A DNA stretch of 64,000 bases from the IMG/VR virus record IMGVR_UViG_3300029448_000025, positions 653 to 64,652 of that record, one strand, 5' to 3'. Positions 1-64,000 of this stretch are shown piece by piece; the first letter of the stretch is position 1, and each line of letters begins with the position of its first letter. A program made the position numbers and the translations under genes. The notes beneath the pieces were generated by a model. The model saw nothing but the letters and a program-made list of their open reading frames with translations, did no database searches and was not told the origin of the DNA. This stretch comes from a virus (Duplodnaviria > Caudoviricetes).

Positions 1-115
1 ACTTTAGCGAATCAGAAATTATGGCTACATCCACACCTGCGCAAAGAGGCTCATTCCCTATGGCGTGGCCTATCAAGGATTGCGACCTCCCGCACAGTGG
101 GCGCAGAGGTGATGC

Positions 116-3100
116 TTGATGGTGTCTTCGATAAACTCAAGAATCACACCCGCAGACTATGCGAAAGCACTTTATCAGAGGCGAGTCCAACAACTCAGGG
201 TCATGCGCCGTTGCGCAGTTATCACCAACGAGGAATACTTTAGCCTTGTCGAAGAGGCGCACAGTGCGCTTGAACTGGCAATTACTGAACTTAAGGGGGT
301 GGGCGAATGAACAACGACGAGTTCGCACACATACACGGCTACGGCGCAGACCCCTTCGGCAACGCAAGAGGTTTTGCCGACGGTTCAGGCGCAGTGGATA
401 TGGGCGCAGGTGTTCACGCACTCCCGCAAGAATACGACACAGTTCGACTGCCTGATGATTTGGGCGGGGCGTGGGTCTGCGTGGTTAAGTCGCAGATGAT
501 GCGATTACCTGATGGGCGCATTGGTCGCTATCTACATTTGACACATCCTGAAATTGACTGCATCGAGATGCGGGATGGTTCAGGGGCGCTATGGGTGCGC
601 AAACCCACACACACAGGAGGCGAAGAAGAATGAAAAAAATACCCGAAGACATGACCGAAGAAGAATGCCACGCAACCGAATGGCCCGTTTGGGTTGTATC
701 GGGCGACGGCGCAAAACGCTCTTTCGTTCATGAATCGACCGCAAGAAGTTATGCGCACCAGTTGAGTTTGCGCATGGCTTCGCACAGCATTGAATGCCAC
801 GCTAAACTCGGCGCAACATTTGAAAAACCTGACCCCGACGCAGACGGCGAAGGCATCATGCGCACATGGGAAAAGGATGACTTTGTTATGGCCTTCGCAT
901 TTGGATGGGTGGTCGAATGAGCAATTCGATGTTTTACACGGTTTTCAGTGATGCCGGAAACGGTTACGCAATACAGTTCACTGGACTCATGTTCGGTGAA
1001 AAGGTCAAGGACAGGCATATTGCGTTCTTTTCAGATGCGAACCACGCAGAGAAGTTTGTTGATGCAATGAATAGCAAACTCGATTCGCCATGCGCAGAAG
1101 ACTGTTTATGCGGTAGAGATTTCAAGGAGGTTTTTCAATGAGCGTAGTCGGAATGCTTCACATCAAATGCGGCAGTAAACTCTGCGACTACTCGGTTTTC
1201 TGCGTAGATGCGGCGCAATACCTGCACGACTTGGCAGAGATTGCCGAAACCCGCAGTGGACTATCATATCAATACCCTAAGCGGTATTGTCCGAACTGCG
1301 CCGCAATCCTGAAACAGAGAGGCGCAAAGACCGAACAAGAGCGTGATGAGGCGAAGGCCGCACGCATAGAGGGGGGGTGGGCGCAATGAGCAACCATAAT
1401 CACACAGAATCAGGACTTCGATTCCTGACGACGCTTTGGTTCGACCACGCATGGACTACGCATGAAACCGGCGGCTATCGTTGGGTTAATTTATGCGCAA
1501 TTGTTCAATCGGCTTTGGCTCAAGGAACCTCAAAGTCGGAGATACTCAAAGCCCTTGAGAACGGGATAAAAGCGGCAAATATGCCTAAAACAATATATAC
1601 TGGGGCCACAGTAGCCCAACCAACGGAGATGAGAAAATGAATATACCGACCGGATATGAAGCCTATAAATTGAATTGCACCGCAGGGGATGCCGTCGTTG
1701 GCGTTCTTTGCCGCCGACCTGACGGCGGAGTATCAGATTACCGCATGGTGATGAACAACCCCGCAGTTGATGGCGTATGCCCTGCTTGCGGTCGTGAAAT
1801 GCGTGAAGTCCAAAGCGGAACCTTCACCTGCTCATCGGGTCATTTGCTTGTCGTTATGACGAATACTCAAGCGACACGCCGAAAACTCGGAACCACGCAG
1901 AGCAAGCCAAAGGCTCGCAAAGCGGTTATGTTGCCTAAGCGCAAATCACCTGCGCTACCCGCACTCCGCACACATCAGACTCGCCTTGTTGCGCCGGTTG
2001 TCTCCGACGCAGAAGAAGACATGACGGACTTTGACCTCGATGCCGTGATTGATGCGGCGCTAAAGGAGAGGATGTCTTGAGCGATTTCTCTATGCTTTTC
2101 AGAACCGACGCAACCTTTGAGGTAGTCGAAGACGATTTGACCCTTGCGCAAATGCAGGGCATGGTTGGCGATTCTCGCGACCCTGAATACACCTCTCTCA
2201 TCGAATACTGCCCAGTAGTAGAAGGCGCACAGTTTCCCGTCAATGACCCGATTACCGGCGAGGTTCGCATGGCATGGGTGCGTGATGTTATCGCAGACGA
2301 AGAAGGCCGATTGCGTGAAAACACATGCAAAGCAAATGTTCTCGCTACATACGCAGTCTTTCAGGCTGTGCCACCATATGCGCCGTTTTGGATTGTCGGT
2401 GATGTCATCATCAAATTGCGCATGAAGGCCACGCACACGCAGGAGGAATCAGAATGACTACGCAAACGAATCATGGAGTAGCAGTAATGGCTCGACAACT
2501 CGCCGCAGACTATGCAGTGTGGCTTGGGAGTCATCGGGCCGCAGGTTTAGCGGAACTCTCAGATGGCATCAACCGAAGCATTCTTGCTTATCAGAACAAA
2601 TGCGTAGCCTATGTAGAACGGTTGCGCAAAGAAGGCGATTCTATCGCATTCCTGCTCTCCCTGCTCGATGATGAGCAAATGATGGCGTGGACTGCGCATA
2701 TCGGAGGTGAACCCCAATGATGTATATGTCGGCAGAAAACAAAGAATGGATGGCGCACGCAATTTTCCTCGGTGAAGACAACATGCACCTTTTCAGGGAA
2801 TCCCGTTGGGAATGGATTTCCGAATGGGAGACTGGTGTTTTCTACAAGGCGTATGTGCGCTTTGGCGGAATCGTGCCATACGAAAACGACGAAGCACTCA
2901 ACTGCGCAATCGAATACGCAGAGCAAAAAATCGAAGCGTGCTTTGAAGAGATTCGACGGCGCTTCAACTTAGGATAAATATATATGTGGCGACACTATCG
3001 GAACAAATACAGGAGACTGAAAATATGAATAACGAAAACGGAAACAGAACATGGACTGTAAAACTGAACAACCAAAAGAAGTTTGAATGTAATTCGCTTC

Positions 3101-5578: not shown

Positions 5579-5616
5579 TATACCGGAAACCCCTAATTAG
5601 GTCGAGGAAAACACCT

Positions 5617-5862: not shown

Positions 5863-5930
5863 GTTTACTCAGACACGCACACGCATACCCATCACCCCTG
5901 CGGGGGTTTGATGTTCCCTTCGGGGTCGCC

Positions 5931-10535: not shown

Positions 10536-11592
10536 ATGAATGAGGGTGAGCCTATCAAATGGCGTGCGCATTTCAATCAGTTGATTGCCCGACCTATCCC
10601 TGAATCCGAGTTTCCTGAAATCGTCAAAAGAATGTTCGATGACGGACTTATTGCAGTTTTGACTCTCGATGGGTTGAGGTGGTTTAGTGGCCGCTATCGG
10701 GTTTCTGCTAAGGTGGTTCGCGATATGTGGGGCTTAAGTGAGCATCAGTTTAAGAGGTTCAACCGTTGGGTTTATAAGAACGATAGTTTTATGTCAATTA
10801 TACAGGGAGATGAAGAGATATGACCGAAGAAAGCCAACGATATGACATGAAGTTTTATTCACTAAAGGACAATCAAATAATTGAACAATCAATAGACGCA
10901 ACTACTGAGGGCTTTGTCTCCTTTTTGACTGGTTACTTGAGTTCTTGTAACGATATGCTCGTCGGGTTTACTAAGCGTAGTCTGAATCAGGACTCGTTGA
11001 TAAGCGACAAAATAAAATCATTGAAGAATGAAATTAGAAGGATGGAGCAATACTTGAGCGAAGAAACGCTTCAAGAGATGGCGCTACATGATGCGGGGTT
11101 GATTTGAATGCGTAAGTGGGCGGTAGTCGCCAACATGACAAGCGTTGTATTCTGCGACGATGACGGCGAAGCAAACTTTGTCGAGCATTTTTTTGAAGGC
11201 ATGGATTTGCAGTTTAACTTGACCGGCGAAGAAGTCGGTAAAGGATATTTTAGAGCAACCATGCCAAACGGTATTCCGATAATAATTTTCTATGACGACT
11301 GGCGCAAAACCAATTTGAAGGTGAAAGCATGAGTAAGGCATATCGAAAGCACGCAGTCGCTAAAGCGGTTGAGACATGGGATATTTCAGAATGGTTTAGC
11401 GCAGATTCTATTTTGCCGAAAGCACATGAGGCTCTCCCGCAGAGCCATATGTCTATCAATGTGTATGCTGTCGCCAAAGCATTAACGGTTCTTGAATCGA
11501 AGGGTGTTTTGACTTCACGCAAAAGCGGCGGAGTGAAAGAGTATTCTCGCATAGAAGGTGTTTGGGATGGGCGTTCTCATTTTCACGCATGA
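10536..11592 (+). CDS. Four small hypothetical ORFs (10536-10823, 10820-11107, 11108-11332, 11329-11592; the last is wHTH-like)
   Basis: Coupled ORFs; the last has AVAKALTVLESKGVL...KEYSR. Confidence 0.65.
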
Positions 11593-12422: not shown

Positions 12423-13750
12423 GTGGCGAAGAACAACGGTAAAGTCCGTCGCCTGATTGCGCAGATTCTATTTTCAGAAGGGCCGATGACAAGAGCAAGA
12501 GTTTGCGAGCGATTGCATGAGTTGGGTATGTTCCGAGAAGTGCCGAGCGAATCAAGTCTTGCGGCACTGATTAGCAAAAATACGCAGGTTGTATCGGTCG
12601 GCCACACCAAAATTGAACTTAGCAACGGTGCGAGAGTCAATAACATGGTCTTCGATGTCGATAGAGAATTAGTCAAAGAAGAACGAGATTTGATGCTCAC
12701 TCGACCATACTCAAGCATGACAACCGTTGAAAGAAAGTGTGCGGTTCGATGCCCCGAATGCCGACAAATGAGAATAATAGAAGAGAAGTTTGGGTCTTGT
12801 CTTATATGTCTCCGGCGTGCGGTTTAATAGGGCATGGGTCAAAGCATACACCATGAAACAATTACTTCACATCGGTTCTAAAGAATACGATTACAAGAAT
12901 CCCTCTTATGCTTGCGGTGAACCCATAACTCATAATCCTAATATGACAGACGCAGATGCTATGGCTCTGCGCAAATGCCCTAAGTGTTTCCCCAATGGGT
13001 TCACTGCGAAGGTTGGTGCTTCGCGCACTTTTGTTGAAGAGGAACCAACCAAGAAGTCTAAGGTTGTAGAAGGGTTGCGTGAAAGAGGAATAGGGGGTTG
13101 GCTCTAATGGTTGCCGGACAAGAACCGAATGCTACTTACGCAGACGACATGGATTCAAGCGTTTATGATATTCTGCGCCAAAGAGTGCCGATACAAATAG
13201 CGATAGACTGGCTCATAGATTACATCAGAAAATGGCCCGAAGAAGACATTTACTATCATTTGGCAGAAGCAGTTTACCATGACGCAGAACCCATATTGGA
13301 GGAATTATCAGATGAATACTGAAAGCAACTACACAGTAAAACAAGTATTTAACGCACTGCGTTATATCAGAAGCAGAATCAACGCAAACGACTTCATGGA
13401 GTTATTTTTCCCCGAAGAAGAGTTTGACGACTACCATGTGAAGAAGTGGGAGATGTTCAGAGATGACATATGCGGTTTTTGGTGTTATTCGGATTATGAC
13501 AGACAGGCTACTATCCACCGACTTGTTGAAGAATCAGTAAGGGATTGATAATATGGTTGAAATAACAGAAGAACAGCGCATACAACTAATTCAAGGCATT
13601 GAGACTCTTGCCGATATAAGCGGCAAATATAGCGAAACTGTTACATTGGCATTTGACGCAATAGACATTATCAAGCGAATGGGTAGAATAGACCTCGCTC
13701 TAATTCTTCTCGACCGACTCAATAAAATTATAGGAGTTGCGCAGGAATGA
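12423..13750 (+). CDS. Small ORFs: wHTH plus Zn ribbon (12423-12827), Zn-finger (12853-13107), 13098-13322, 13312-13548, 13553-13750
   Basis: Coupled ORFs with CPEC/CLIC and CPKC motifs; TTTAATAG box at ~12823. Confidence 0.6.
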
Positions 13751-14355
13751 CTCTCATAATAGGTATTGCAGGGCGTATGCGCACAGGAAAATCAAGTCTT
13801 GCGCAGTTGCTTGAGGAATACCTTTCGCAGACACATACAACAATGACATTTTCATTTGCAGAAGCAGTGCGTCAAGAAGTGGCGCAGTCTATTTGGTCTA
13901 AACACAGAAAAATGGAGGCGAGGTATATGTTGTCTCGGCATGAGTCCGAACATAAGGAGTCGGTTCGCCCACTACTACAAGCATTGGGTCAAGCAAAGCG
14001 ACAAATGGTTGATGAAGACTATTGGGTTGATGCGGTGCAAGACTCCATCAATCGTCAAGGTGAAACATCAATCGCAATCATAGACGATGTGCGCCATCAT
14101 AACGAGGCAGACTTCTGCATCAAACATGGCATTCTTATCAGACTGCGTGCGCACGAAAGCACATTGATTGAGAGAGGTGCGATTCCTGAAAGACTTGCGC
14201 ACTACTCGGAAAACGCTATGAAAAACCCATCCTCTCAAGAATTACGCAAACCGCATAGAGTCTTAACTCTCGATACTGCGGGTCTTTCACCAAAAGGTAT
14301 GCTCAAAGCATTGCGCCCTTTCATTGACGAATTGGTTGAAGGTGAGTTTGAATGA
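13747..14355 (+). CDS. Deoxynucleoside monophosphate kinase-like P-loop kinase
   Basis: IIGIAGRMRTGKS, SFAEAVRQEV, RPLLQALG, DYWV, IIDDVRHHNEA. Confidence 0.75.
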   Translation: MTLIIGIAGRMRTGKSSLAQLLEEYLSQTHTTMTFSFAEAVRQEVAQSIWSKHRKMEARYMLSRHESEHKESVRPLLQALGQAKRQMVDEDYWVDAVQDSINRQGETSIAIIDDVRHHNEADFCIKHGILIRLRAHESTLIERGAIPERLAHYSENAMKNPSSQELRKPHRVLTLDTAGLSPKGMLKALRPFIDELVEGEFE

Positions 14356-19478: not shown

Positions 19479-19958
19479 ATGTGCGCAAAGCCCTTATTTG
19501 TCGATTACATATTGACACATGAAGACTTAGAAACGATTTGGGGTTCAGATTTACCCCTCGCTTCTGAAAAGGGCTATCCTGATTTTTTCGATAACATGGT
19601 CTATTGGCTTCTTTGGGCCAATCAAGAACCTATTGCATATACTGCTTCTTTGACGACGCATTATGACGGCAAAAGAAAGTTTGCGTTTGTCGGCAATACC
19701 TATGTGCGCAGTGAATGGCGCAGTAAAGGTTTACACTCGTTTCTTTTGAGTGAGCGCAATTCTGCGCCGCACATGAAAGACCTCGACAAAATTACTATAC
19801 TGAATCCGATTGAAGGAGTCGGTATGGCTCAATTAGAAAGGGTCGTTTCAGGTTTAGGCTATCACAGAATAGATTCTTATTCTCAAGTCGAGGACATTAT
19901 GCCTCGGCAGGTTTATATGAGCATCGAACAAAGAAACATATGGAGGCTTAATTCTTGA
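19479..19958 (+). CDS. GNAT-family acetyltransferase
   Basis: NTYVRSEWRSKGLHSFLL matches the acetyl-CoA-binding motif A. Confidence 0.65.
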   Translation: MCAKPLFVDYILTHEDLETIWGSDLPLASEKGYPDFFDNMVYWLLWANQEPIAYTASLTTHYDGKRKFAFVGNTYVRSEWRSKGLHSFLLSERNSAPHMKDLDKITILNPIEGVGMAQLERVVSGLGYHRIDSYSQVEDIMPRQVYMSIEQRNIWRLNS

Positions 19959-21172
19959 AGAAAATTATACTCGCAGATTGTTTAGATGCTTTGAAAGACA
20001 TGAAAAGTAATTCTGTTGATTCAATCGTTACCGACCCACCATACGGATTATCCTTCATGGGTAAAAAGTGGGATTATGATGTTCCTTCTGTTGAGATTTG
20101 GAGAGAGGCTTTGAGAGTCTTGAAGCATGGAGGACACCTTCTCTCATTTGCGGGTTCTCGCACTTATCACCGTATGGCGGTGAACATTGAAGACGCAGGG
20201 TTTGAAGTGAGGGATATGATTATGTGGGTGTATGGTTCGGGTTTCCCGAAGTCGCATAACATTAGCAAGGCGATAGACAAAACCGCAGGTGCAGAACGGG
20301 AAATTATAGGGTATAACAAATGGGATAATGGCGTCAATTTTTCTCATAGTGGTGGTGGAAAATACCAAGAAAAGTGGGATAAGAGGCAAAAATCACCTAT
20401 CATCGCCCCTGTTACGCCCGAAGCAAAACAATGGGATGGTTGGGGTTCAGCCCTCAAACCGGCCCATGAGCCTATTGTCGTCGCCCGTAAGCCCCTCATC
20501 GGCACTATCGTTGAGAATGTGCTTGAACATGGCACAGGTGGCTTGAACATTGATGGTTGCCGAGTCGGAGATTTTACAAATACTCAATTTTCGGGGATGA
20601 ACAGGTGGAATGATTTTAGGCATGGGGAGGGTAAATACGAAACAGAAGAAACAGTCAATGTCAAAGAAGGCAGGTTCCCTGCTAATTTCATTCACGATGG
20701 CTCGGATGAAGTAGTGAATCTATTCCCCTCAAACAAAAGCACCAAAAGACCCCCTTCCAAAAAAACAAATACAAGCAACGGTTTAACGCATGGGAAAATA
20801 AAGGGGTTGGCAACAGAACGGGGTTTCGACGATAGCGGTTCCGCCGCCCGATTCTTTTACTGCGCCAAAGCGAGCAAAGCCGAGCGAAGCGCAGGACTTG
20901 AAAACAACATACACCCAACGGTAAAGCCCGTCGCTCTGATGAAATACCTTTGCCGACTTGTTACGCCGCCAAACGGTATTGTTCTTGACCCGTTCATGGG
21001 TTCAGGAACAACAGGAATAGCGGCGTTGGCGGAAGACTTTTCATTTATAGGAGTGGAGAGAGACTCCCAATACTTTGAGATTGCGCAGAAGCGATTATCA
21101 CATATTTCAGAAGAAGTTGAGCGACATGAAGAAGTGCGCAGAAAACATGAAGAAAGGGTTGATTTATTTTGA
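19955..21172 (+). CDS. DNA N6-adenine/N4-cytosine methyltransferase (beta class)
   Basis: VTDPPY, HPTVKP, LDPFMGSGTTG. Confidence 0.93.
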   Translation: MKKIILADCLDALKDMKSNSVDSIVTDPPYGLSFMGKKWDYDVPSVEIWREALRVLKHGGHLLSFAGSRTYHRMAVNIEDAGFEVRDMIMWVYGSGFPKSHNISKAIDKTAGAEREIIGYNKWDNGVNFSHSGGGKYQEKWDKRQKSPIIAPVTPEAKQWDGWGSALKPAHEPIVVARKPLIGTIVENVLEHGTGGLNIDGCRVGDFTNTQFSGMNRWNDFRHGEGKYETEETVNVKEGRFPANFIHDGSDEVVNLFPSNKSTKRPPSKKTNTSNGLTHGKIKGLATERGFDDSGSAARFFYCAKASKAERSAGLENNIHPTVKPVALMKYLCRLVTPPNGIVLDPFMGSGTTGIAALAEDFSFIGVERDSQYFEIAQKRLSHISEEVERHEEVRRKHEERVDLF

Positions 21173-25305: not shown

Positions 25306-25322
25306 AACACTTCGCTTAAAAT

Positions 25323-42750: not shown

Positions 42751-43101
42751 AATTTTTACCTTCCTTGTATTCAATAGTTATTGCTTTAGATAGCGGAATA
42801 ACCATGAAATGTTGCGTATCGCCATCCCTGTATAAACGGTAGCCATGCGGTGTCTCTTCAATGTTTATGTTTGTATAACAACGCTCAGGAGGTTGATACA
42901 CTATTTTTCCTTTTCTTTTTACCATAATTAACTCTCCAAAAACGCTTTGATTTCATCCGAACTCCAAACAGGCAATCCCGAAGGCCAATTCGGGCCTAAA
43001 TGATATTGCCCCCTAAAGTAATTGAAGCATGTATCGTCATCCATAAACGACCAATTTTCATCGGGGAATCTTGTTTCTAATTTTTCTTTTAATGTCGGCA
43101 T
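42743..43101 (-). CDS. Two small ORFs (42928-43101, 57 aa, possible fibre chaperone; 42743-42925)
   Basis: Coupled to the fibre gene; MPTLKEKLETRFP...W..G.P.W read manually. Confidence 0.5.
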
Positions 43102-45206
43102 CACGCATCACCTAATCTAATTACTTTTACTGATGTTCGGTAGTCGTTATATGCGGCGAGATAAAAACCACACCCATTAAGATAAGCGGAAAAATAAATG
43201 TTTACTGCCGAACCGCCGGTTCTAATTTTTGCTGTTGTTTGGTGATTGTATTTTACTTCAATACCGTTTATTCTAATAACTTTTCTTGTTGTAGCATATC
43301 GTCTGTCGCCACTATTGTTTGTTGATATTTCAATAAAAGAATCAATGTTGGCGGCACTTGTTCCGTGTCCGAAAATATCAGTCGAAAACCACACATCGTA
43401 AATACCATTAGCGGCTAAAGTAAGGTAGCCGTCAGTGTGTAAAACAATACTTGTATGGTCGCTTGCTGTGGTGGCCGCAGTCCAAAAACTTGTATCGGCT
43501 AAATCCGCAACCCATCTTGTGTTGCTGTTAAAGTCATTGCTTGAGGATGTTGAAGGGTTGTGATTAACCATGCGGTATTCGGCAAACTCCAAAAGGTCAA
43601 GTGCGTTTAACTTAGTGTGGTCGTCATCAGTAAATACATTTGAATCAGTTGCGGCTTCAACAGCCGCCCTTACTTCGGCATTACTTAATTGAGTATTAGT
43701 GTCGGCGTGGTTACTTGCGTGTATTGTTCCTGCGCTTGCACCGGCCCAATCAACATGCTCCGCCGCTACAAAATTGTTTAAAGAATCGTGGTCTATTTCT
43801 GCGGGAACTGCAACGGCTGTAATTGTAGTTCCACTGTTTGTTACACCAACTCCATTAGAACCTAAAATAGAAAAATCCGCAGAACCTCCTGTATCTTCGG
43901 CTTTTGAACCACCGCCGCTATCAGTAGTTATTGTTACTCCGGTTATATCTCCTGAGCCACCTCCTGAACCAAGCGTAGTATCGGTTCCTGCATCATTAGT
44001 AAATATAAGTGTGCTTGGTGTTGTATTTTTAACCCAAAGAATGCCCGTTCCTGCGGCGGCGGCAATTGGATGGTCTGCATTTTCTGTTAATTTAATTCCT
44101 TTGTCTGCGTGCAAAGTATTGTCTGCAAAAGAAAGTTCGGTAGAAGTATTCAATGCCGACGCTGTGCTACCAAACGGTATTAGTCCTGCCGCAACTGACT
44201 GCAAACCTGTTCCCCCATCTGCAATATTTAAAGTATGCAATCCTTTGTAAACATAAATGCCATCTGCAATAGGATAAAAACCCCAAGTTCCTCTAATTGT
44301 TGGTTTATTTGTAATATGAAAAGTTCCTCCAAGTGTATTTGAACCGCTAACTCCTGCGCCAACATTTACTGTTAAATCGTTTAAAAAAACGGATGAACCC
44401 GACGCAATGTTTGCTTTGCCCCCAACACCTGCTACGCTTGAATCAATAATCCATTTTTGCCATGTAAAACGACATCCATTATATGTCGAAGTTCCGTTTG
44501 TTGGCAAAACAAAACTACCAGTAAATGCTTGAAAAGTCCATGCCGAATATCCCCCATTAAATGTATTAACGCCGCTATCAACCTGAAACTGTGTTTGCGC
44601 AGTTCCTTGACTTATCCATTCTTTTGCTCTGTCATTAGTAGAAGGAGTTGCGGAAGCAGGGGCAAAAGCGCCGCCTTTTATATGTAAAGTGTAAAACTTT
44701 ACCGCAGTTGCCGTATTTGTTCCAAGTGAAGGTGCGACATAATCAGGAGTATGCGAGCCTGAGTTAATAACTATGTTTGGATATTCACCTGCTTCATATT
44801 TTATTCCTGTTGTAGAACCTGTATAAGTAAAATAAAATAATCTTCTTGCAGTTTCATTTGCAAAAATTGATGTGTCTTTTGCTATACCTATTTGAAAAAA
44901 AGTTTTATTGCTGTTGTATGGTGCTGTTCCTGAAAAAGTAAAAACTCTATCTGCGCTCGCAGTAAAAGCGCCAACTCTTGAACAAGAAAGACCCGTAAGT
45001 GCAATATCACTATTTACTGTAATTACTCCTGTATAAGTTGAAGCAACAGTAATTGTAGAAACTGCGGTTACATCCCATGTGCAATTTTCTACACTTGTAT
45101 TATTAAAAACGACTGTATCACTTGAAGTTGGGGCAGAACCACCACTCCAATTACCATTAGTTGAGGCAGAACCGGCACTCGAAGCAGACCATACTCTTTC
45201 TGCCAC
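43101..45206 (-). CDS. Head/tail fibre or spike protein
   Basis: 701 aa G/S/T-rich; NWSGG..P..D.V.F beta-helix start, GGSGDITGV linker, C-terminal C1q-like beta domain. Confidence 0.7.
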   Translation of the reverse strand: MAERVWSASSAGSASTNGNWSGGSAPTSSDTVVFNNTSVENCTWDVTAVSTITVASTYTGVITVNSDIALTGLSCSRVGAFTASADRVFTFSGTAPYNSNKTFFQIGIAKDTSIFANETARRLFYFTYTGSTTGIKYEAGEYPNIVINSGSHTPDYVAPSLGTNTATAVKFYTLHIKGGAFAPASATPSTNDRAKEWISQGTAQTQFQVDSGVNTFNGGYSAWTFQAFTGSFVLPTNGTSTYNGCRFTWQKWIIDSSVAGVGGKANIASGSSVFLNDLTVNVGAGVSGSNTLGGTFHITNKPTIRGTWGFYPIADGIYVYKGLHTLNIADGGTGLQSVAAGLIPFGSTASALNTSTELSFADNTLHADKGIKLTENADHPIAAAAGTGILWVKNTTPSTLIFTNDAGTDTTLGSGGGSGDITGVTITTDSGGGSKAEDTGGSADFSILGSNGVGVTNSGTTITAVAVPAEIDHDSLNNFVAAEHVDWAGASAGTIHASNHADTNTQLSNAEVRAAVEAATDSNVFTDDDHTKLNALDLLEFAEYRMVNHNPSTSSSNDFNSNTRWVADLADTSFWTAATTASDHTSIVLHTDGYLTLAANGIYDVWFSTDIFGHGTSAANIDSFIEISTNNSGDRRYATTRKVIRINGIEVKYNHQTTAKIRTGGSAVNIYFSAYLNGCGFYLAAYNDYRTSVKVIRLGDA

Positions 45207-53627: not shown

Positions 53628-53687
53628 AAGCATAAAAAGAATTAAATTGCGCAATACCTTATAAGCCAAACCTATTAAGTGCGTAAT

Positions 53688-54914
53688 ATGGCAATAGAAT
53701 ACCATGATGCTGTTAAAAAAGAAATTGATGAGCATTATACTGGAAACATTATGGCTTTTTCAAGACACATGCACAGTATTATGCCTGAAATAACAAGTGA
53801 ACAGCATAGATGGCGTTTGCGTATGTTAAAACAACATATGTCGGAGATTTTTCCTGTTTTTAAAAATGTTGATTATAATGCAGAAATACCAAAACAATTT
53901 GACGGCACTCAAGCACAGTTAATACGCATTATGCACAAACGGTTTCCTGAAATCTCAAAGTCAGGTTGGGAGTCAAGGATTCGGGCGGCATGGGAAAGAG
54001 AAGCGGTTACTCGCACAGAAACACCCCATTTTATTGTCGAACACTTGAAAAAGAAGTCAAGTAGTCAAGAAGACCTATGGAATGCTATTGAAGAACGCTC
54101 AAAAGCGGCGATTCTTGCAAACACAGATGCTCGTTGGGCTACATTTCACATGAAGTCCGATAAACGATACATTGGCATTGCATTTCAAAGCGACCAACAC
54201 ATAGGCAATCCATTTTGCGACCATGAAAGGTTGCGCGAAGACACAGAAGCAATTGAACGACACCCTGAATGCTATGTTATTCATGCGGGTGATTATATTG
54301 ACAACTTTATGATTGACAAACCTCGACCTGCTATGAAAGCACCTATTCCTCCTTCTATCCAATGGCAACTATGTGAACACTACATTAACATGAGTCCTAA
54401 TTCACTTATGGCTATTGTTGCGGGTAATCACGACCTTTGGACTGCCGGTGCAACAGATTATGACCCTCTAAAGCGTCTTGCGCAAGACAGAGGCGTTTTG
54501 TATCACCCGTATGAGTTAAACCTCAAAGTTATTCACGGCGATATTCCTTATCACCTTAGTATTCGACATAAGCGAAGAGGTAATTCAAATCTCGACCCAA
54601 GCCGTGTAATTAAGAAAATGTGGGATGACGGAGAATGTGATTTTGACATTGGAGTTATCGGACATCATCACACGCCATCAGTTGTTCCTTTTACTCGACA
54701 TGCAGTTGAGCGTTGGGCTTTAAGGCCGGGCGCATACAAAACAATAGACAGTTTCGGTGAAATGTGCGGTTTTCCGAGAGAACGCCCAACATCCCCTATG
54801 GTTGTCCTTGATTCTCAAACAAGAGATATTCAAGCATTTACAGACCTTAGACATGGACTTAGACTTCTTAACACTCTTAATGGAAGGAAAGCAAATGCCT
54901 ATATGGAAGAGTGA
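53688..54914 (+). CDS. Calcineurin-like metallophosphoesterase with duplicated N-terminal helical repeat
   Basis: SDQHIG, GDYID, GNHD, RH, GHHH. Confidence 0.85.
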   Translation: MAIEYHDAVKKEIDEHYTGNIMAFSRHMHSIMPEITSEQHRWRLRMLKQHMSEIFPVFKNVDYNAEIPKQFDGTQAQLIRIMHKRFPEISKSGWESRIRAAWEREAVTRTETPHFIVEHLKKKSSSQEDLWNAIEERSKAAILANTDARWATFHMKSDKRYIGIAFQSDQHIGNPFCDHERLREDTEAIERHPECYVIHAGDYIDNFMIDKPRPAMKAPIPPSIQWQLCEHYINMSPNSLMAIVAGNHDLWTAGATDYDPLKRLAQDRGVLYHPYELNLKVIHGDIPYHLSIRHKRRGNSNLDPSRVIKKMWDDGECDFDIGVIGHHHTPSVVPFTRHAVERWALRPGAYKTIDSFGEMCGFPRERPTSPMVVLDSQTRDIQAFTDLRHGLRLLNTLNGRKANAYMEE

Positions 54915-55092
54915 TGACGAACAGTTAATCCTTACTGAAATGGGGCATGATTATGTCGCATTTAATATATTTTCAGAAGAATTAGTTATTGGCATTATGC
55001 TTAATAGAAATGAAATTGAAGAGTTATGCAACTCTTTGCTTGAATACTGTGGAATACCTGTTTTTGAGGTGAAAAACAATGATGAAGAATAG
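54895..55092 (+). CDS. Small hypothetical protein
   Basis: 65 aa ORF coupled to the terminase gene. Confidence 0.5.
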   Translation: MPIWKSDDEQLILTEMGHDYVAFNIFSEELVIGIMLNRNEIEELCNSLLEYCGIPVFEVKNNDEE

Positions 55093-56578: not shown

Positions 56579-56700
56579 AAAATCGGCAAAAATTAAAAAA
56601 AATATAAAAATTGTGAGAGGTGGTTGGCGTGCGTAGCCCCGTCAGTATGCGCAGTTTTTGGCGCACCTAAAGCGCAGGTTCAGGGGCCGCAATTATTTTG

Positions 56701-58188
56701 CCTAAACGACGCACTGCGAGCCTGTTTGTCTGCGTGTTCTGCGCAGTTCATGCTCGCGCAGGTGCGCGTCATCACGCCACACGCCTTATGCGTCTGTTTT
56801 TCGATTTGCGCCAAAAGTTTCTGAAAGGGCCACTGAGAGCCTGTTTAGGGCCAATAATCCACTATTCAACTCAAGGTTCAGTAGTGCGAATGGCACATAG
56901 CGAGGCTGTTTGACCTTCTGCGCAACCCCAAATATGCGACCTTCTGCGAGACTCCAAGCGATTCATTCAGAAAACCACGCCAAAATTGACGCCTCAGAGC
57001 CTCCCCCATAGCCCCGCAGTCTATCGTTTAGACCACCCTCAAACGACCTTCTCAGAGTTGAAACCTCAGAACTCAAAACCGTTGCACTGCGCCCCACCTT
57101 AGAAACTGCGTGAACCGTTGTTTTCAAGTATCAAACCGCCGTTTTCCGGTTTACCGCCATACATGCCGAATATGTGCAATTTCTCAACATTGCCGAAAGA
57201 GTCCGTTTTCACCATACCGGCACTGCGGCGCAGTCTATCGAATGACTACTGAACCGATGGTTCCCCTATGGTAGCACTCCCCGCAATTTTGCGCAGAGCC
57301 TCAGTGCATCGAATAGAAAGCAACGGGGTGCGGCTATTGCATCATCGACTTTCGGCGTTTTCTGCGTGTTTTCTAAAATCGCCGTTTCCGTTCCGTTTGG
57401 GCTGTTTTTGGTTTTTCATCGAATGTCGGAAACCTGCAATTTATCCCGCCGATTCTGAAAAAAACGATGGACTGCGAAGCCGACACTAAAACCCCGCAAT
57501 CCCTAAACGATGCACTGAGAGCCTATGAGTTCTAAACGCCGCACTGCTCGACCGGCGGCCCCATGTCGGCTTGACATCGACCGGACAACAGCCCCGCAGT
57601 CATGCGTTTACCGATTCGGCCTCGCGTGCATGATGCGCGTGCGTATGCGAGATTTGGGGGCTTTGCGTGGATTGTCTAAACGATGGACTGAGAGCCTATC
57701 CTCTCTCCTGATTCGATGCCTAAACGATGGACTGCGCCGCTATTTTCCGGTTTCCGACATGACCTGAAACGACCTTTTCGGCCAAACAGCGCCGCAGTGT
57801 TGCTTTTAGACCTGTTTTCTGAAATGCTAAACGATAGACTGCGAGCCTATTGATATTCTGCTCTGCGCCGTATTCCTAAACGATAGACTGAGAGCCTGTT
57901 ATTTTCCTAAACGATGGACTGAGAGGCGGAGAACCCTAAACGATGGACTGCGAGCCTGTCGCCTAAACGCTATACTGCGCCGCAATTGTAGAGCAGTGCA
58001 TCGAATAGATTCTGCGAACACCCCTAAACGATAGACTGCGCCCCGATTGTCTCTCAGTGCGCCGTTTTTTTTCAGGAGATTTCGACAAAATCAAAACCCG
58101 CAACCGTCGAAGATGTGCATATAAGAACTGCGCCGTTTTGCTTCAAGGCACACTGCGAGCCTGTCGCCGTCGCAGTGCATCGTTTAGG
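56701..58188. repeat. Dispersed array of the bipartite motif (CCT)AAACG-N4-ACTG(C/A)G(AGCC) in the non-coding region
   Basis: + copies at 56701, 57461, 57502, 57532, 57676, 57719, 57827, 57875, 57906, 57935, 57962, 58023; - copies at 57015, 57229, 57300, 57595, 57993, 58053, 58171; further degenerate copies. Confidence 0.92.
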
Positions 58189-58256
58189 TTGCTTCTGCGC
58201 CGTTTACCTTCTCGCTTCATATACTCCCATGAGAGAGGTGAAACCGGAGAGATACC

Positions 58257-60863
58257 ATGATACAAAATATATGTATGAAAATAATGGCCTTCATCCTCGC
58301 AGTGGTGCTTTTTACCACTGCGGCGGGTGTCGGTCTTGAGCAAAACCCTTTGACTGAGGTTGAAGGAGAAGACAACATGAACAAAGAAAACGACGCACTG
58401 CGCCCCATTTGGGCAGAGTTGCCTGAACAAACGCACATCTCGCGTTCGCGAGTCAAGCGTTTTCACCGCAAGCAACAATTGCGTGAACAGCGCCCCCGTC
58501 ATGCGTTCAAGCGAGCATTGCGCCGCTTGTTTTCTTTAGGGCATCTGCGTGAAGAATCGAAAGGTTCAGGCGTTTGGATTCTTGACAAAAGAAGCACACT
58601 GCGCCGCATTTCGGACTTCTTGAGCCATCGGGTTCAAATTATCCGTATTGGCTTCGCAGTCCGTCGATTAGCGAAGGAAACCGCGAAGAAGAACGCAGAA
58701 CTCACACTCGCGAGTGATGCGTTTTCATCCGTTGAAATTGCGCCGCAGTCAAACGAATTGTTTGAATATCAGTGGGATGAGGTCTGCGAGTGTAAAACCT
58801 GCGGAGATTTCACCGATGAAGTCGATTTGACCCTTGAAAATGGGCCGCAGTGCATCGAATGTTACTTAGACGAAACCGACGCACTCACGCAGACACGCGA
58901 CGACATCGACAAATACGCAGACTGCGAGCCGGTCGATGGTCTTTTGTCAGACCTGAACCCCGACCTCGTAGAATACGGAAACGCTACACTGCGCCGCACT
59001 TTCTGCGTCGTTGCTGTTATCGCGGTTTTGTATGCTTTCGACATCACTCAATTGTCTTTCAGTCTTGCGTTTATCGGCGCAGTTCGCACGCCCAAGCCTC
59101 AATGGTTGAAGGACGCGGAGAACTCAGGCGTTGAAGTGATTTCAAAGGGTCGCAGTGTTCCGATTTCAGGCCGAAAGGAAAACACACGGGTGAAGTCCTG
59201 CGCCGCTTGCGGTTGCGATATTCCCGCCGGTCAATACTTCGCCCAACTGAATGCGAAGAAGGGAAACGGTGAACCTTTCGCCTCCTTAAAGCCACACTGC
59301 GAGACATGCACAGCCGAATATATCCAAGTTCATCAAACGATAAAATCGTATCGCTCAGGCGCACATAATGCGCCTGTCGCGAGTGCCTCGGTTTCTGAAC
59401 CTGAACCTGAACCTTTGACCGTCAATGTTCAAAACAACGCACTGCGCCCCAATTCTTTCAAGGGAACATGCGCAGTTTGTAGCGTTGAAGTTCCGTCGAA
59501 GGCGGGATTCATTCACGCAGAGAGTCCGAAAGGGCATAAAATCCGATGTGCTGAACACGCAACTGAGGCGCTGTTTATCGGTTCAAACGGTGAGCCGATT
59601 CAAGGCAAAAAGTCCAACGGCGCAAGCCGTGTGATTCCTGAACCTTCACAGGCTCTCAGTCAAGCGGTTAAGGCGCAAGTTTCTGCGTCGTTGCCATCGA
59701 CTGCGCAAGGCGATAAAATCGAACTTCTTCAAGCGTTGCTTTCAGGCGATGGTTTGAATGAAGAACAAGTGCGCAGTGTTGCGAAAGCGGTTGTTGAACA
59801 ATACGCAGAAACTGCGATTCAAAACGGCGTTCAAAACGCTTCTGCGCATGTTGAAGAACGGATTGAAAAAGTCGTTTCAGAATTGAAGGCTCAAGAAGTC
59901 ATCAAAACGCTACACATCAAGCCATCGAAGAAGGCCAAAGCGGTGAAAATATCAGGCGCTTATCATCCCGCAGTGCCGACCGTTTTCTCAATCCTGAAAG
60001 CGGGGCTTCTCAATGGCTCGCCGTTGCCTGTTTACATGGTGGGCGAAGCGGGAACCGGCAAGTCTTACGCAGTGGCTCAGGTTCAAGCAATGCTTCAAGC
60101 GGCTAAATTGCAGAGCAGTAAAGCGTATGGAGAAATCATATGCTTCGCAGATATGACACGGGGCGACCTTCTCGGTAATGTGAAGTATGGCGTGGGCGGT
60201 AAAGGTTCTATTGAATGGCAACGCAGTGGCCTTGTTAAGCCGCTTCTTGAAGGCGGCGTGGCCTTTGTCGATGAAATAGACAAAGCAGACCCCGCAGTCC
60301 TCGTTTTATTGAACGGCGTGCTTGCATCGCGAACCGTCATCAATCCGGCAACGGGTGAAGTCCTGAAAGTGCATCCTCAAGCGGTGATAATCGCCGCAGG
60401 AAACACCGGCGGTCATTCGATGGGCGGCGCTTACAAAGCGGCGCAGATTCAAGACGCCTCGCTTCTTGACCGATTCGCCGCAACCGTAGTGAAGTTTGGA
60501 TTTTCCGCACGCATTGCGGCTTCAATATGTGGCCTCAGTCATTCGATGGCCGAACCTGAAAACAGTCCACGCGGTGAACCTGCGCAGATGTCCGAGGTTT
60601 TGAAATCCTATACCGAATTGCGCCAAATTGTAGTGGGTCAAACCACTGTGCAATACAGCAACCGCGCCCTTCTTCATGCGTCGGTTTTGGCTAAAGACGG
60701 GTGGACTCTGAACGCCATTATTGGTCGATGGGTTGAACCGCTTGATTCTGAACTCCGCAGAGAGGTTTTGAATCACTTCGGAATGATAGACGGCGAGGCT
60801 CTTTCATTGGTTCCGCAAGGTGTCTTTGAACCTGAATCCGTAGATATTGCGGGAGGCGCTTAA
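58257..60863 (+). CDS. MoxR/CbbQ-type AAA+ ATPase with N-terminal hydrophobic segments and Zn fingers
   Basis: VGEAGTGKS, FVDEID, AAGNT, LLDRF; CKTC...CIEC, CAAC...CETC, CAVC...CAEH. Confidence 0.85.
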   Translation: MIQNICMKIMAFILAVVLFTTAAGVGLEQNPLTEVEGEDNMNKENDALRPIWAELPEQTHISRSRVKRFHRKQQLREQRPRHAFKRALRRLFSLGHLREESKGSGVWILDKRSTLRRISDFLSHRVQIIRIGFAVRRLAKETAKKNAELTLASDAFSSVEIAPQSNELFEYQWDEVCECKTCGDFTDEVDLTLENGPQCIECYLDETDALTQTRDDIDKYADCEPVDGLLSDLNPDLVEYGNATLRRTFCVVAVIAVLYAFDITQLSFSLAFIGAVRTPKPQWLKDAENSGVEVISKGRSVPISGRKENTRVKSCAACGCDIPAGQYFAQLNAKKGNGEPFASLKPHCETCTAEYIQVHQTIKSYRSGAHNAPVASASVSEPEPEPLTVNVQNNALRPNSFKGTCAVCSVEVPSKAGFIHAESPKGHKIRCAEHATEALFIGSNGEPIQGKKSNGASRVIPEPSQALSQAVKAQVSASLPSTAQGDKIELLQALLSGDGLNEEQVRSVAKAVVEQYAETAIQNGVQNASAHVEERIEKVVSELKAQEVIKTLHIKPSKKAKAVKISGAYHPAVPTVFSILKAGLLNGSPLPVYMVGEAGTGKSYAVAQVQAMLQAAKLQSSKAYGEIICFADMTRGDLLGNVKYGVGGKGSIEWQRSGLVKPLLEGGVAFVDEIDKADPAVLVLLNGVLASRTVINPATGEVLKVHPQAVIIAAGNTGGHSMGGAYKAAQIQDASLLDRFAATVVKFGFSARIAASICGLSHSMAEPENSPRGEPAQMSEVLKSYTELRQIVVGQTTVQYSNRALLHASVLAKDGWTLNAIIGRWVEPLDSELRREVLNHFGMIDGEALSLVPQGVFEPESVDIAGGA

Positions 60864-60948
60864 GCGTAAACTGCGCAAGCATATGACGGCCAGTTTATAC
60901 TTGCCCGATGCTACGCAGTCAAACGAAAATGGAGGTGAAAAAGTGAAT

Positions 60949-61962
60949 ATGAAACATCAATTTCAAGGTCGGAATAAGAAGCGGCTTGAGAACCGACATG
61001 TCGATGATGAAGGGTGCGAATATGGCACTGCGACACTTGGAGGTTCTAAGTGCGTGGTTTCGATTGCTCCGAGTCATGGCGCAGTCATCCGTTCATTGCA
61101 TGGCGGGTCTAAGATTTCAGGCGGCGAACCGCATGACATCAACTCCCCGTATCAATCATTTCATGGGCGCAGTGCATCGAAAGAAGAAGTTTACGCAGAG
61201 GGTTTGAAGGGCGCAAGTCATCAACCTGATGCCGACGCCGTTTCAAAGCACGCAAAGCGATTCGATGCCATCAAAAGCCTTGTTTCAAAGTCCGTGAAAA
61301 TTGTCCGAAAAACGGAAGACTTCGCCGGTAAAGTCGTTGGACTTGACATCGGCGCGGCATTGCGTGGTGATGCGTTTATACGCAACAAAAAGCGACGGCG
61401 CACTCAATCCGAATGTGTCGCCATATTTGTTCCCGTGAATGCGGTCGGGTCGGTCGATTCTCGCATTTGTCAAATCCGCAGTAGTGCGGCGTTGGCATGT
61501 GCGCAAATCCTTGAAGACTCAGGCCAACCCGTTGAAGTCTATGGGCTTGCGTGGTCTTGCGGCGTGTCTATCGGTTATGACGGTCTAAGCGTGGTTAAGG
61601 TCAAGGGTTCAAACGAACCTTTCAACCTCGGTCAAGCGGCTTCGGCTCTGTCTGCGTGGTCTTGGCGTTCTCTGATTTTCGGGTTCCGTGAACTCGGATT
61701 CGCAAACGCCCTTGAGCATCGAATGACCGACGGCGGCGGCAGAAGCATGGTTCCAACTAAGCGATTCTGCGCCGAACTTGCCGACCTTCTCGGATGTCAA
61801 AAGTTCGCCTCAATTGCCCATATTCCCCGACGGGGAACCCGATGGACTACGGCCAACGCTGAGAAAGAAGTCGAGCAATGCACAGACGCCCTAATCGAAG
61901 CACTGAAAGGCATTATGAAGAATGATGATGCCTTTTCAGGTCTGAACTACGGGAGAGACTGA
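60949..61962 (+). CDS. vWA-domain partner of the AAA+ ATPase (degenerate MIDAS)
   Basis: Directly after the AAA+ gene; LDI.AAL.G, VAIFVPVNAVGSV, LE.SG.PVEVY, VKVK...P; SD GGAGGTGA. Confidence 0.7.
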   Translation: MKHQFQGRNKKRLENRHVDDEGCEYGTATLGGSKCVVSIAPSHGAVIRSLHGGSKISGGEPHDINSPYQSFHGRSASKEEVYAEGLKGASHQPDADAVSKHAKRFDAIKSLVSKSVKIVRKTEDFAGKVVGLDIGAALRGDAFIRNKKRRRTQSECVAIFVPVNAVGSVDSRICQIRSSAALACAQILEDSGQPVEVYGLAWSCGVSIGYDGLSVVKVKGSNEPFNLGQAASALSAWSWRSLIFGFRELGFANALEHRMTDGGGRSMVPTKRFCAELADLLGCQKFASIAHIPRRGTRWTTANAEKEVEQCTDALIEALKGIMKNDDAFSGLNYGRD

Positions 61963-62548
61963 GAACCATTGAAAACGGTGGACTGCAATACATTTGAACA
62001 ACTTTAGAAAGTCAAAAAGGAGGTGCGAAAAAGAAGGAAAAGGATAGATTGAGAGATGTGGCCCCGTGTTTCTCAAATCCAAAACATTGCGCAACGGGGC
62101 ATTTTCTCATGCCGATTGGCTCGCAGTGTAGCGTTTAGCCACTGCTTTCTTGCCTCGGTGATTCTCCGCAGAAGTGGCCGATAGGCTCGCAGTCAAGCGT
62201 TTTTACCGCCGCCGCCATTCGACGTGCGATTGATTCTGCGCCGTTCTGTTTTTTCCGGCCTGAAATCTCAAACCTCAAATCTCAAATCCAAAACGACCCC
62301 GCAGTTTTCAATGCGTGGATTTTGCGCTCTACTGTTTCTGCGGAGTTTGAAATCCCCACCTAAATGCGCCCGAAAATACCACAGAAATATTTTGCCCTTT
62401 CTCGCACATGCCTTGCGTGTGCCTTGCGTGCGTGCATCATGTGCGCCTTTTATTTTTTATCGCATGACCCGCATATGTTGGGTTTCAGGCCAAAAATGGG
62501 GGTTTTGGGGCGGTCATTTGATAAGGTGTGGCGCTTTCGCTTAGGTTG

Positions 62549-63783
62549 ATGAGAACGAAAACTCAGATGATAAACAAGGCGAAAAGAGCGATTGAAGAGG
62601 GAACGGTATTCACATACCTGTCCTCGCATATGTTGGGGGTTCCGGCTGAGAGGTTGCACCGTTTCACGGTTCAAGGTTTCTGCAATCAATACGGCCCTGC
62701 TTGGGCTGTCATTCTATGCGACTGCGCAACCGGCGAAGAAAGGAAACTGGTTTTAGAAAACTTCGCAAAGCGATATACCGAGGTGAGCGAATGAGTTTCA
62801 AGCAATGCTGTGTAGCCTGTGGGCGTGAAATGCGCTACAATCCCGCACACTACCTATTCGCTTGTCGAACCGATGGTTGCGAGTGGATTTATCAAGGTGG
62901 CATATTCTTCAATACAGCCGATGATTCACAGGCGGTGGTCGCATGATTCTTTACATGTGCGGCGCATGTGGGGCGGATTACACGCTACCGAGAGATTTTG
63001 AAGCATTGAAGAAGTGCGCAAAGAATTGCGGTGAACCGCATTTGATGATGGAGGAATCAGAATGAGGGGCGGAATCATACGAAGCGCAGACCTTTGCGTG
63101 TGTCGCACAGGTGCGAAGGAGCAGTTTTACACCCTCTACATCGAGGTTCAATGTGTGCGCACTACTGCGCCGAAAGGCGTTTCATACTCGTCATGGTTTG
63201 TTCAGAACCTTGCGCATAAGAAGGAGGATGCTATCGCTAAAGCCGAGGAACTCGGCACAGAATTAGAGGCATGGGGCCACTATGATGAAATCACACTCTC
63301 CTTTCACGCAGAACCACGCCCGATATACACGCGCTATGTTGCCTTTGGCGACATTGAAATGAAAATGTCAAAATCACGCAAAGTCTGGTGGGGCAACACC
63401 AACGAAGAGTTTTGGGATGCGTGGCGAGCAGACAAGGCCGCAGTTAAGGCCGCAGGTTACTGGGTCAAGCGCAACGAAGACGGCAAATGGCTTTTGTTCC
63501 GCAGAGTCGAAGCCGATGAAATCGAATGGAGGCATGAATAATGAAGAAGGAAGGGCAGATATTTACAGCATGGATTAGCGGAACTGCGGTAATCGCTCGC
63601 AGAACTACGCTTAGATGCACCCCTTGCGAAATCAGAGTTCAGGGCGAACCTGTATCATGGGCCTATAACATGGCGAGTGAGGCGGAAACTACGCACTACG
63701 GCTTTCTATGCAAAGGTTGCGGGAGAGATAGCACGCTCTCAACCGATGAAATCCGCAGAATAAAAAAGGGAGTGGGCGAATAA
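62549..63783 (+). CDS. Start of the early micro-ORF operon (62549-62794, 62791-62946, 63062-63541, 63541-63783)
   Basis: TTGATAA box at ~62518, coupled ORFs, SD sites, CxxC motifs. Confidence 0.65.
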
Positions 63784-64000
63784 ATGTTTGCTCTGCTATT
63801 AGTCGGCGCTTTTATTATCATGGTTGTATTGCCGTTGTTCATGGCTTACCTGATGGAGAGGATTGAATGACTGCGTGGCCCTGCTACCGATGCGGTGAAA
63901 TCGCAGACCTGAACGGCCCTCACGCCGAAGGTTTGCCTGTATGCGCACAGTGCGCACCTGATGCGCAACCTCCGATTCTCAGTATTGAACTCGTTCCCGC

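Follow-up and report, generated by a model that had tools for sequence, protein, structure and literature searches.

A lineage-specific excess of the word CGCA/TGCG in the genomes of a clade of marine tailed viruses

The DNA analysed here, hereafter the window, comprises 64,000 nt (positions 653 to 64,652) of the 64,652-nt single-contig virus record IMGVR_UViG_3300029448_000025, has a G+C content (GC) of 43.9%, and carries the tetranucleotide CGCA about once per 100 nt on each strand. Its genes were called mechanically as 94 open reading frames (ORFs) with a strand prior from the gene layout, which together cover 94.5% of the window, and the 69 ORFs of at least 80 amino acids (aa) were scanned against Pfam. 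PolB, an RFC-like AAA ATPase and an ERCC4 nuclease were found in this way, and no MCM, primase or RadA was found among the 69 ORFs at E<=1e-3. Among cultured viruses, the closest PolB sequences come from haloarchaeal tailed viruses, with 22-24% identity. The genomes of relatives are 60-68 kb long, and the clade to which the window belongs consists of marine tailed viruses of ~60-65 kb with archaeal-type replication genes. For the magroviruses, PMC5434244 gives genomes of ~100 kbp with MCM, an archaeo-eukaryotic primase, RadA, RFC, PCNA and DNAP; both the 'magrovirus' label and a Marine Group II (MGII) host were assumptions of the first-pass annotation of this DNA. That annotation also proposed that CGCA and its reverse complement TGCG, here together called the word, form a short sequence track for a DNA-binding, modifying or translocating protein.

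The excess of the word is real, strong and lineage-specific, and neither coding, composition nor the avoidance of restriction sites explains it. The window contains 644 copies of CGCA and 637 of TGCG (1281 together), against 191 and 188 (379) expected from base composition. Against the same expectation, again for the whole window, TGCGCA was observed 177 times rather than 11.7, GCGCAG 101 times rather than 9.5, and CTGCGC 88 times rather than 8.8. The estimate by eye that first drew attention to the word, roughly 25 copies in the first 600 nt, agreed exactly with our recount (15 CGCA and 10 TGCG), for which 4.7 would be expected at equal base frequencies and 5.4 by local composition. An order-2 Markov model ranks CGCA (ratio 1.62, z 18) and TGCG (ratio 1.50, z 15) first and second for over-representation among the 256 tetramers. 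Enrichment is 2.4- to 4.4-fold in each of the sixteen 4-kb bins, including those at 28-56 kb, so that the word is indeed frequent in the AT-rich structural module as had been noticed, and its density is 20.8 per kb in noncoding vs 19.9 per kb in coding DNA.

The distribution of the word among relatives falls into two groups. A PolB search of IMG/VR returned 123 relatives, 80 of which were kept, and those loci that reached 9 kb or more, 66 in number, were compared. The word ratio was 2.88-3.63 in 19 of these 66 loci (GC 41-53%, GCGC 2.0-4.7) and 0.62-1.27 in the other 47 (GCGC 0-1.1), with none between the groups. In a PolB tree from a quick IQ-TREE run, in which the rich rows were 18 loci plus the window and L011 was left out because its PolB is partial, the 19 rich rows lie on one side of a single long branch (Shimodaira-Hasegawa approximate likelihood ratio test, 100). 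By these loci and this tree, the trait is bimodal, of single origin, and confined to one PolB clade. Among complete genomes, TGCGCA occurs 155-227 times in each of the five rich ones, where 9-12 would be expected, vs 0-10 times in each of six sister genomes, which thus avoid it, and the 5-mer GCGCA/TGCGC exceeds expectation 8.7-fold in the rich clade and stands at 0.97 in the sisters. Across rich genomes with differing sets of avoided palindromes, the excess of the word stays at 3.16-3.43. Such differing sets within the clade suggest different hosts or restriction repertoires, and the constancy of the excess despite them therefore points to a cause carried by the virus lineage. In assemblies of prokaryotes, PolB relatives were found at two loci only, L081 and L082, both in the CGCA-normal part of the family. 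They sit in metagenome-assembled genomes (MAGs) labelled Rhodobiaceae and Opitutales, and the L082 contig, at 61 kb, is as long as a complete viral genome; both are probably viral contigs that were binned with bacteria, and thus no evidence of a host. At least 118 stretches in IMG/VR hold three closely spaced copies of TGCGCA; those listed were mostly local repeats and none belonged to this clade, so that they bear neither way on the trait in other virus families. An unrelated, AT-rich 4105-nt contig of a giant-virus MAG in IMG/VR (L163, GC 31%) has 11 copies of TGCGCA and a CGCA/TGCG ratio of 5.6, which may reflect a local repeat or a genome-wide trait.

The first-pass annotation had recognised that an enrichment of this kind might disappear under shuffles that preserve codons and dipeptides; it would then be an artefact of amino-acid, codon or dipeptide usage. 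When synonymous codons were shuffled inside each gene, which keeps the proteins (hence the dipeptides) and the codon usage of each gene, the null was 715 vs the 1281 copies present. With a ratio of 1.79 and a z of 33.7, the word ranks above every other tetramer, and the enrichment thus did not disappear. Under the same shuffle, 52.6 copies of TGCGCA were expected vs 177 observed (3.4-fold), and 65.5 of GCGCAG/CTGCGC vs 189, and when the dinucleotide counts were fixed as well, the null for the word was 934±16. The distribution over reading frames, proposed at the same time as a check, showed enrichment in all six frame and strand classes (1.74, 2.39 and 1.97 for CGCA; 1.17, 2.10 and 1.91 for TGCG) in addition to the noncoding DNA, which bears out the early impression that the word stands on both strands and beyond composition. 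Proteins and codon usage do lift the expectation from 379 to 715, or ~37% of the raw excess, and this codon usage is in turn unlike that of the sister clades. However, a z of ~34 remains after the shuffles, noncoding DNA is equally enriched, TGCG on the coding strand is raised about as much as CGCA, and the opportunities that the amino acids offer for the word are alike in rich and sister clades. In 23 core genes, the rich relatives offer 172-184 such opportunities per 1000 codons, the window genome 169-181 over the same stretches and the sisters 154-186, whereas the share realised as the word is 0.27-0.31 in rich genomes vs 0.09-0.18 in the sisters. Because the opportunities are similar in the two groups and the realised share differs, the effect lies at synonymous sites. 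The pressure acts on synonymous and noncoding positions genome-wide, does not reshape the proteins, and makes the fraction of coding opportunities used for the word roughly two to three times as large. A codon or dipeptide artefact is refuted by the shuffles with and without fixed dinucleotides, the frame classes, the noncoding DNA and the equal opportunities, and we regard it as almost certainly wrong.

The unit that is enriched is short. Maximal-order Markov models account for TGCGCA by its 5-mers and for these 5-mers by 4-mers, and the two flanks of GCGC are independent of each other (281 x 288 / 433 = 187 TGCGCA expected, 177 observed), with the excess of TGCGCA close to the product of two independent half-site effects (3.4-fold vs 1.8 squared). 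From the independence of the flanks and the Markov results it therefore follows that the unit is CGCA on either strand and that TGCGCA is two overlapping units. Flanking nucleotides show a graded preference, t-G-CGCA-[G/A]-[A/T], with G at 44% at -1, T at 40% at -2, and G/A at 34/32% at +1. No longer hidden motif was found, the top 7- to 10-mers all being TGCGCA with A/T-rich flanks and none a discrete long site. With regard to strand, CGCA and TGCG number 385 vs 269 in 1-27440, where the word on the coding strand is dominant, and 137 vs 237 in 27441-53300. In 53301-64000 the two are in balance (122 vs 131) although the genes lie on the + strand, so that transcription by itself does not account for the small strand bias. 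A polar form of the track for a translocating protein that the first-pass annotation had considered is unlikely, because the strongest form of the word is palindromic, noncoding DNA has 38 CGCA vs 35 TGCG, and the coding-strand excess beyond the null is merely 1.99/1.70 = 1.17-fold.

The window genome has also lost many other words. GATC, CTAG, GTAC and AGCT have 0 copies each vs synonymous-shuffle nulls of 92-160, ACGT has 1 copy, CGCG has 47 vs a shuffle null of 185, and 48 of the 64 six-base palindromes do not occur at all. The losses extend to asymmetric words, namely GCAGC/GCTGC (0, null 104), CACAA/TTGTG (10, null 123) and CCAGA/TCTGG (2, null 84), and GTCAC/GTGAC (0, null 48), CGTCC/GGACG (1, null 62) and CTGAAG/CTTCAG (1, null 35) are further depleted words. 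The missing words suggest exposure to many Type II, IIS and III systems. The sets of absent palindromes differ between the close relatives G000-G004 (L083-L098). For instance, AAATTT has 0 copies in G000 and G001 vs 16-44 in G002-G004, and TCCGGA has 21 copies in G001 only; likewise, ATTAAT is absent from the window genome and has 16-44 copies in G002-G004, and TTGCAA has 0 copies in G002 vs 28-61 in the other rich genomes. Judging from these sets, each lineage seems to be tracking a different restriction repertoire.

This raises the possibility that the excess is purely a by-product of restriction avoidance, in which GCGC and TGCGCA are simply not forbidden and the sequence is funnelled into CGCA words. 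It is true that AGCGCT, GGCGCC and CGCGCG are absent from the window beside abundant TGCGCA, and that CGCG and TGCA, which are one step from the word, are depleted. Nulls that take avoidance into account were made with synonymous-swap chains in which no avoided word was allowed above its observed count; these chains begin from the real sequence, so that a possible slight under-mixing would make the nulls too high and not too low. With codon usage fixed, the null rose from 715 to 819 when seven 4-mer palindromes were capped, to 823 with 78 four- and six-base palindromes capped (GCGC and TGCGCA exempt), to 872 with 233 words capped and to 983 with 792 words capped, and with dinucleotides also fixed it reached 1062-1153; nevertheless, the observed 1281 exceeds every constrained null. 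When the proteins were re-coded with sister-clade codon usage of similar GC, the count was 507 unconstrained, and it rose merely to 567 with the palindromes capped and to 680 with 298 words capped. The share of the excess due to avoidance is thus 8-22% by re-coding with sister codons and 19-47% with codon usage fixed. Furthermore, sister viruses with equal avoidance serve as natural controls and show no excess: five sister loci without GATC, CTAG, GTAC, AGCT and ACGT have word ratios of 0.94-1.22, and the sister genomes G005 and G008, which lack 43 and 45 of the 64 six-base palindromes, contain only 5 and 0 copies of TGCGCA. TGCA is not avoided in G001, G003 and G004 (1.5-1.7), and their excess is unchanged, and the word sites are actively conserved, as described below. 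As the sole cause, avoidance is therefore largely refuted by the constrained nulls, the re-coding and the natural controls, and we consider it very unlikely; it contributes a minor share by funnelling the sequence into the few permitted GC-rich words, and it is not the cause.

The word is kept at present and positively maintained. In comparison with L001/L010, which are ~94% identical in DNA, 523 word sites are common to the two sides, and 52 vs 54 occur on one side only. Between relatives of this identity, the word sites change at 9.7% vs a 4-mer median of 19%, which is rank 2 of 126, and the sites with one third-codon position change at 5.2% vs 16.5%. An alternative source of such a signature is a neutral, context-dependent bias of mutation or repair, introduced by clade-specific replication or repair enzymes that would make CGCA, or leave it intact, more often than other words, and without a function of its own; a mismatch correction acting in this context, as in the very-short-patch repair of E. 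coli, would be one example. This would be consistent with an excess that is uniform over genes, noncoding DNA and every 4-kb bin, as well as over singletons (word ratio 3.6) and core genes (3.18), without a positional, spacing or promoter pattern, and repair-type genes specific to the clade do exist, such as an Mre11/SbcD-like gene. All four tetramers one transition away from the word fall short of the null (TGCA 0.71, CACA/TGTG 0.75, CGTA/TACG 0.70, CGCG 0.25). Moreover, the excess is weaker in highly expressed structural genes, with ratios of 1.21 in the tail tube, 1.6 in the capsid candidate and 2.0 in the portal gene, and in likely recent imports, as slow amelioration predicts. The capsid-candidate protein had no match in the phage collection. 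One likely import is a tract (42819-43592) that holds 6 words vs 2 in the copy of the sister-clade genome G005, or 7.8 per kb vs a genome mean of 20 per kb, and that looks from its alignment like the product of a recent inter-clade recombination. The tract spans the end of a gene for a 701-aa protein and the next small genes, and the rest of that gene is 32-39% aa-identical to clade relatives. Another word-poor region is the gene of a DNA methyltransferase (word ratio 1.73 vs a genome mean of 3.4), and both it and the exchanged tract fit gradual amelioration of imported DNA. The low density of the word in these likely imports counts equally in favour of a word that is still maintained.

Several observations, however, argue against a mutational origin. 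No C5-methyltransferase, Vsr-type, T:G glycosylase or base-modification family was found in the 69 ORFs scanned against Pfam, in which the nearest to these were an N6/N4 methyltransferase and a pyrimidine-dimer glycosylase. No single neighbouring word appears to be depleted to match the gain: the losses in rich vs sister genomes are diffuse, CGTA/TACG (0.37 vs 0.60) is the one T-containing counterpart that stands out, and the rich clade has more TGCA than the sisters. Exchanges with close relatives are also spread over many different neighbours (TGCA 20, CACA/TGTG 11, CTCA/TGAG 10 and CGAA/TTCG 10 of 106). Mutational biases with a specificity of 4-5 nt are rare outside methylation-linked repair. 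We rate a neutral bias as unlikely on the whole, although most of the same facts are compatible with it.

The pressure could also come from the hosts, either because the virus mimics a word bias of its host or because a nuclease or defence system of the host spares word-rich DNA, so that the word would act as a Chi-like mark of self. A precedent exists in bacteria, in which over-represented words such as Chi shield DNA from host exonucleases, and the 48 absent palindromes reflect a strong restriction pressure from hosts, whose systems do shape these genomes. In contrast, the excess is constant in the clade while GC and the avoided sets differ, which suggests different hosts, and sister clades with similar avoidance sets lack the excess and even avoid GCGC and TGCGCA. 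The polarity that would be expected for a Chi-like word is weak. The low word ratio of the methyltransferase gene is a further point against mimicry of the host, which counts only if the gene is of host origin. We consider a host-driven excess improbable.

If the cause lies in the virus lineage, it may be sought among the genes that accompany the trait. Gene presence was scored with tblastn (E<=1e-3), and genes were termed clade-only when they were in rich genomes and absent from the six sisters. Approximately 19 clade-only genes accompany the trait, of which about fifteen encode small proteins of unknown function, and the clade-only genes near PolB are present also in the GC-rich subclade. 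The features referred to here are collected in Table 1.

Table 1. Location of clade-only genes and other features within the window.
Feature	Position	Strand	Remarks
87-aa winged helix-turn-helix protein	11329..11592	+	clade-only; candidate sequence reader by inference
deoxynucleoside monophosphate kinase	13747..14355	+	clade-only; Pfam DNMK E 4e-9, PHROG 139 E 4e-27
N6/N4 DNA methyltransferase	19955..21172	+	Pfam N6_N4_Mtase E 3e-34; just upstream of PolB
zinc-ribbon protein, 58 aa	25130..25306	+	clade-only; 62-71% identity across the clade
exchanged tract	42819..43592	-	777-nt alignment (774 nt of the window), 88% DNA identity to sister-clade G005
Mre11/SbcD-like phosphoesterase	53679..54914	+	Pfam Metallophos; PHROG 7339 'DNA repair exonuclease' E 6e-33
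iteron cluster CTAAACGATnGACTG[C/A]GAGCC, ~21-29 nt	56702..58167	both	scattered copies to ~62.2 kb
AAA_5 ATPase (868 aa) and DUF7192 protein (371 aa)	58257..61962	+	clade-only; directly downstream of the iterons

Among these, the 87-aa winged-helix protein is a candidate reader of the word, as judged from its predicted fold and its distribution. It has 79% mean column identity over 9 orthologues, and its AlphaFold model (predicted local distance difference test, pLDDT, 86.9) has an H-H-H-hairpin topology, which Foldseek matched to winged-helix DNA-binding domains of the Fur/Zur/ArsR/PadR type (best E 5e-4). Each of the 19 IMG/VR loci with a gene for this protein is CGCA-rich (ratio 2.98-4.18). 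The deoxynucleoside monophosphate kinase gene is in all rich genomes and loci that cover its region and absent from normal ones, and the Mre11/SbcD-like gene is the best-conserved of the clade-only genes (74-92% aa identity). For the AAA_5 ATPase, the NCBIfam matches were weak and far below the cut-off (Orc1/Cdc6 E 0.0017, CobS E 0.0039). Profile searches of the clade-only proteins against Pfam (E<=0.5), PHROGs, NCBIfam and PDB sequences gave weak hints only, and a clade-only protein of 276 aa had no usable match in the ESM Atlas and a poor AlphaFold model (pLDDT 46.9).

The possibility that a modifying protein marks the genome, which the first-pass annotation had also raised, has lost its candidate. 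The only DNA methyltransferase, CcrM-like by an NCBIfam match below the cut-off, is absent from three of the four other complete clade genomes (G001-G003 gave no match, and G004 only a weak one). It is in 4 of 7 loci of the GC-rich subclade, and it is absent from L012-L014. As a writer or cause of the word it was rejected, since it is missing from the word-rich G001-G003 and L012-L014 and its own gene is word-poor.

Another feature confined to the clade is an iteron array directly upstream of the gene for the clade-only 868-aa AAA_5 ATPase. The iterons were first seen as a 12-copy family; at <=5 mismatches, there are 13-17 copies in all five rich genomes and 0-3 in all six normal ones. This array may be an origin or regulatory array, and is perhaps a replication origin with its initiator. 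The first-pass annotation took CGCAG for the right half of a bipartite repeat (56.7-62.2 kb) and suggested that full-length sites of the genome-wide word are clustered at this one locus. The former holds in part: 11 of the 17 copies in the window genome contain TGCG and most of the rest TGAG, TGCG occurs in 9 of the 13 copies of G001 and in 10 of the 15 of G003, and the invariant parts are AAACGAT and GACTG. The latter is doubtful, as the variable TGCG position inside the iterons makes the link weak. The idea that the genome-wide word is a degenerate iteron was rejected, because TGCG is not an invariant core of the repeat.

What is left of the proposed short sequence track is a word that is raised at the DNA level, stands on both strands, is maintained and is a trait of a clade, and for which a reader or writer protein was not identified. 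The reading that we put first, tentatively and at somewhat less than an even chance, is that the word is maintained, is free of orientation, and is read by a clade-specific viral factor. In this case, the pressure would come from the virus lineage and not from each host, as weak selection for dense, orientation-free sites of a viral DNA-binding or DNA-processing factor. The factor might be the 87-aa winged-helix protein, one of the small zinc-ribbon proteins, which are encoded at 25130-25306 and 1637-2080, or the replication/nuclease module beside the iterons, and the sites might serve in protection or self-marking, priming, nicking or compaction. A narrower form of this idea, which we think rather unlikely, is that the word is a virus-encoded positive mark of self, the mirror image of restriction-site avoidance, by which a clade factor tells viral from host DNA. 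The 87-aa winged-helix protein or the replication/nuclease module would then read ~1 site per 100 nt per strand, and the outcome could be immunity to the virus's own or the host's nucleases, dense priming, or nicking.

Several points weigh against a word read by a viral factor. No protein has been tied to the word, and a word of 4-5 bp holds little information for a specific reader. The co-occurrence of the genes and the trait is a single evolutionary event, and it therefore nominates candidates and is not independent evidence. No preferred spacing or helical phasing was found besides the overlap in TGCGCA. Neither was there an intergenic preference of TGCGCA (12 of 177 in the 5.5% of noncoding DNA) or a promoter-proximal one (15 within 60 nt upstream of starts vs 15.6 expected), and a role of TGCGCA as an operator or promoter element was rejected for lack of either preference. 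Site positions are conserved only slightly above those of other tetramers (odds ratios 6.1-17.0 vs medians of 5.6-9.4). A neutral bias of mutation or repair therefore fits the nulls for spacing, position and promoters equally well. Finally, the null with fixed dinucleotides and 298 avoided words capped (1153±14) leaves a mere ~1.11-fold excess. This null is over-conditioned, because the excess of the GC dinucleotide (ratio 1.30-1.39 in the rich clade vs 0.91-1.09 in sister genomes) itself belongs to the clade trait.

Whatever its cause, a 15-20-fold excess of a six-base palindrome that sister clades avoid, in an abundant, uncultured marine clade, stands against a background from which nearly all other palindromes have gone. 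A single origin together with ~19 genes and an iteron array yields a short list of candidates and a clean natural contrast of rich and sister genomes, and the word bias provides a sharp marker for binning or classifying the clade. The window genome is also among the most extreme cases of restriction-site avoidance in the data examined. In the literature found on palindrome avoidance by archaeal viruses, on over-representation of TGCGCA and on methylation motifs of Marine Group II, the word bias is unreported; the main texts of PMC5434244 and PMC11706807 make no mention of palindromes, restriction or tetranucleotides, nor does the former mention methylation, or the latter methyltransferases or k-mers.

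When the word is compared with known systems, each of them resembles it in some respects and differs in others. Palindrome avoidance is known in viruses of bacteria and archaea (PMC6286503), and the window genome is an extreme case of it. However, avoidance removes words, whereas one word has been gained here, including the palindrome TGCGCA that sister clades avoid. The site-specific nicks of phage T5, for which PMC3517423 gives the consensus R/GCGCRGG, are similar in that a viral DNA-processing site contains GCGCR, and GCGCAG/CTGCGC is well above its shuffle null in the window. In T5, major nicks are few and on one strand, whereas there are >1000 sites on both strands here, and their flank is GCGCA[G/A]A and not GCGCRGG. 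Iterons and other origin repeats are represented in the clade by its own array of 13-17 repeats beside an AAA+ gene, some of which spell TGCG, but TGCG is variable in that array and the word is not a degenerate iteron. Very-short-patch repair, which acts beside Dcm methylation in E. coli and biases oligonucleotides, likewise raises tetra- and pentanucleotides genome-wide on both strands at sites that have no function. It requires a C5-methyltransferase and the Vsr endonuclease and depletes the T-containing counterparts, while neither these genes nor a matching clade-specific depletion was found in the present case. Chi words of the bacterial RecBCD and AddAB enzymes are 5-8 nt long, asymmetric, strongly polar and over-represented. 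The word described here is like Chi in being short, in lying far above expectation genome-wide, and in apparently being kept by selection on the DNA rather than the proteins, and it differs from Chi in its core of 4-5 nt, its palindromic strongest form and its weak polarity. No family of the RecBCD/AddAB type was found by Pfam among the 69 ORFs, and no such enzyme is known in archaea. Word excesses that are not driven by coding are rare, and each of the understood cases, such as Chi, uptake sequences and repair-linked biases, has exposed a DNA-handling system.

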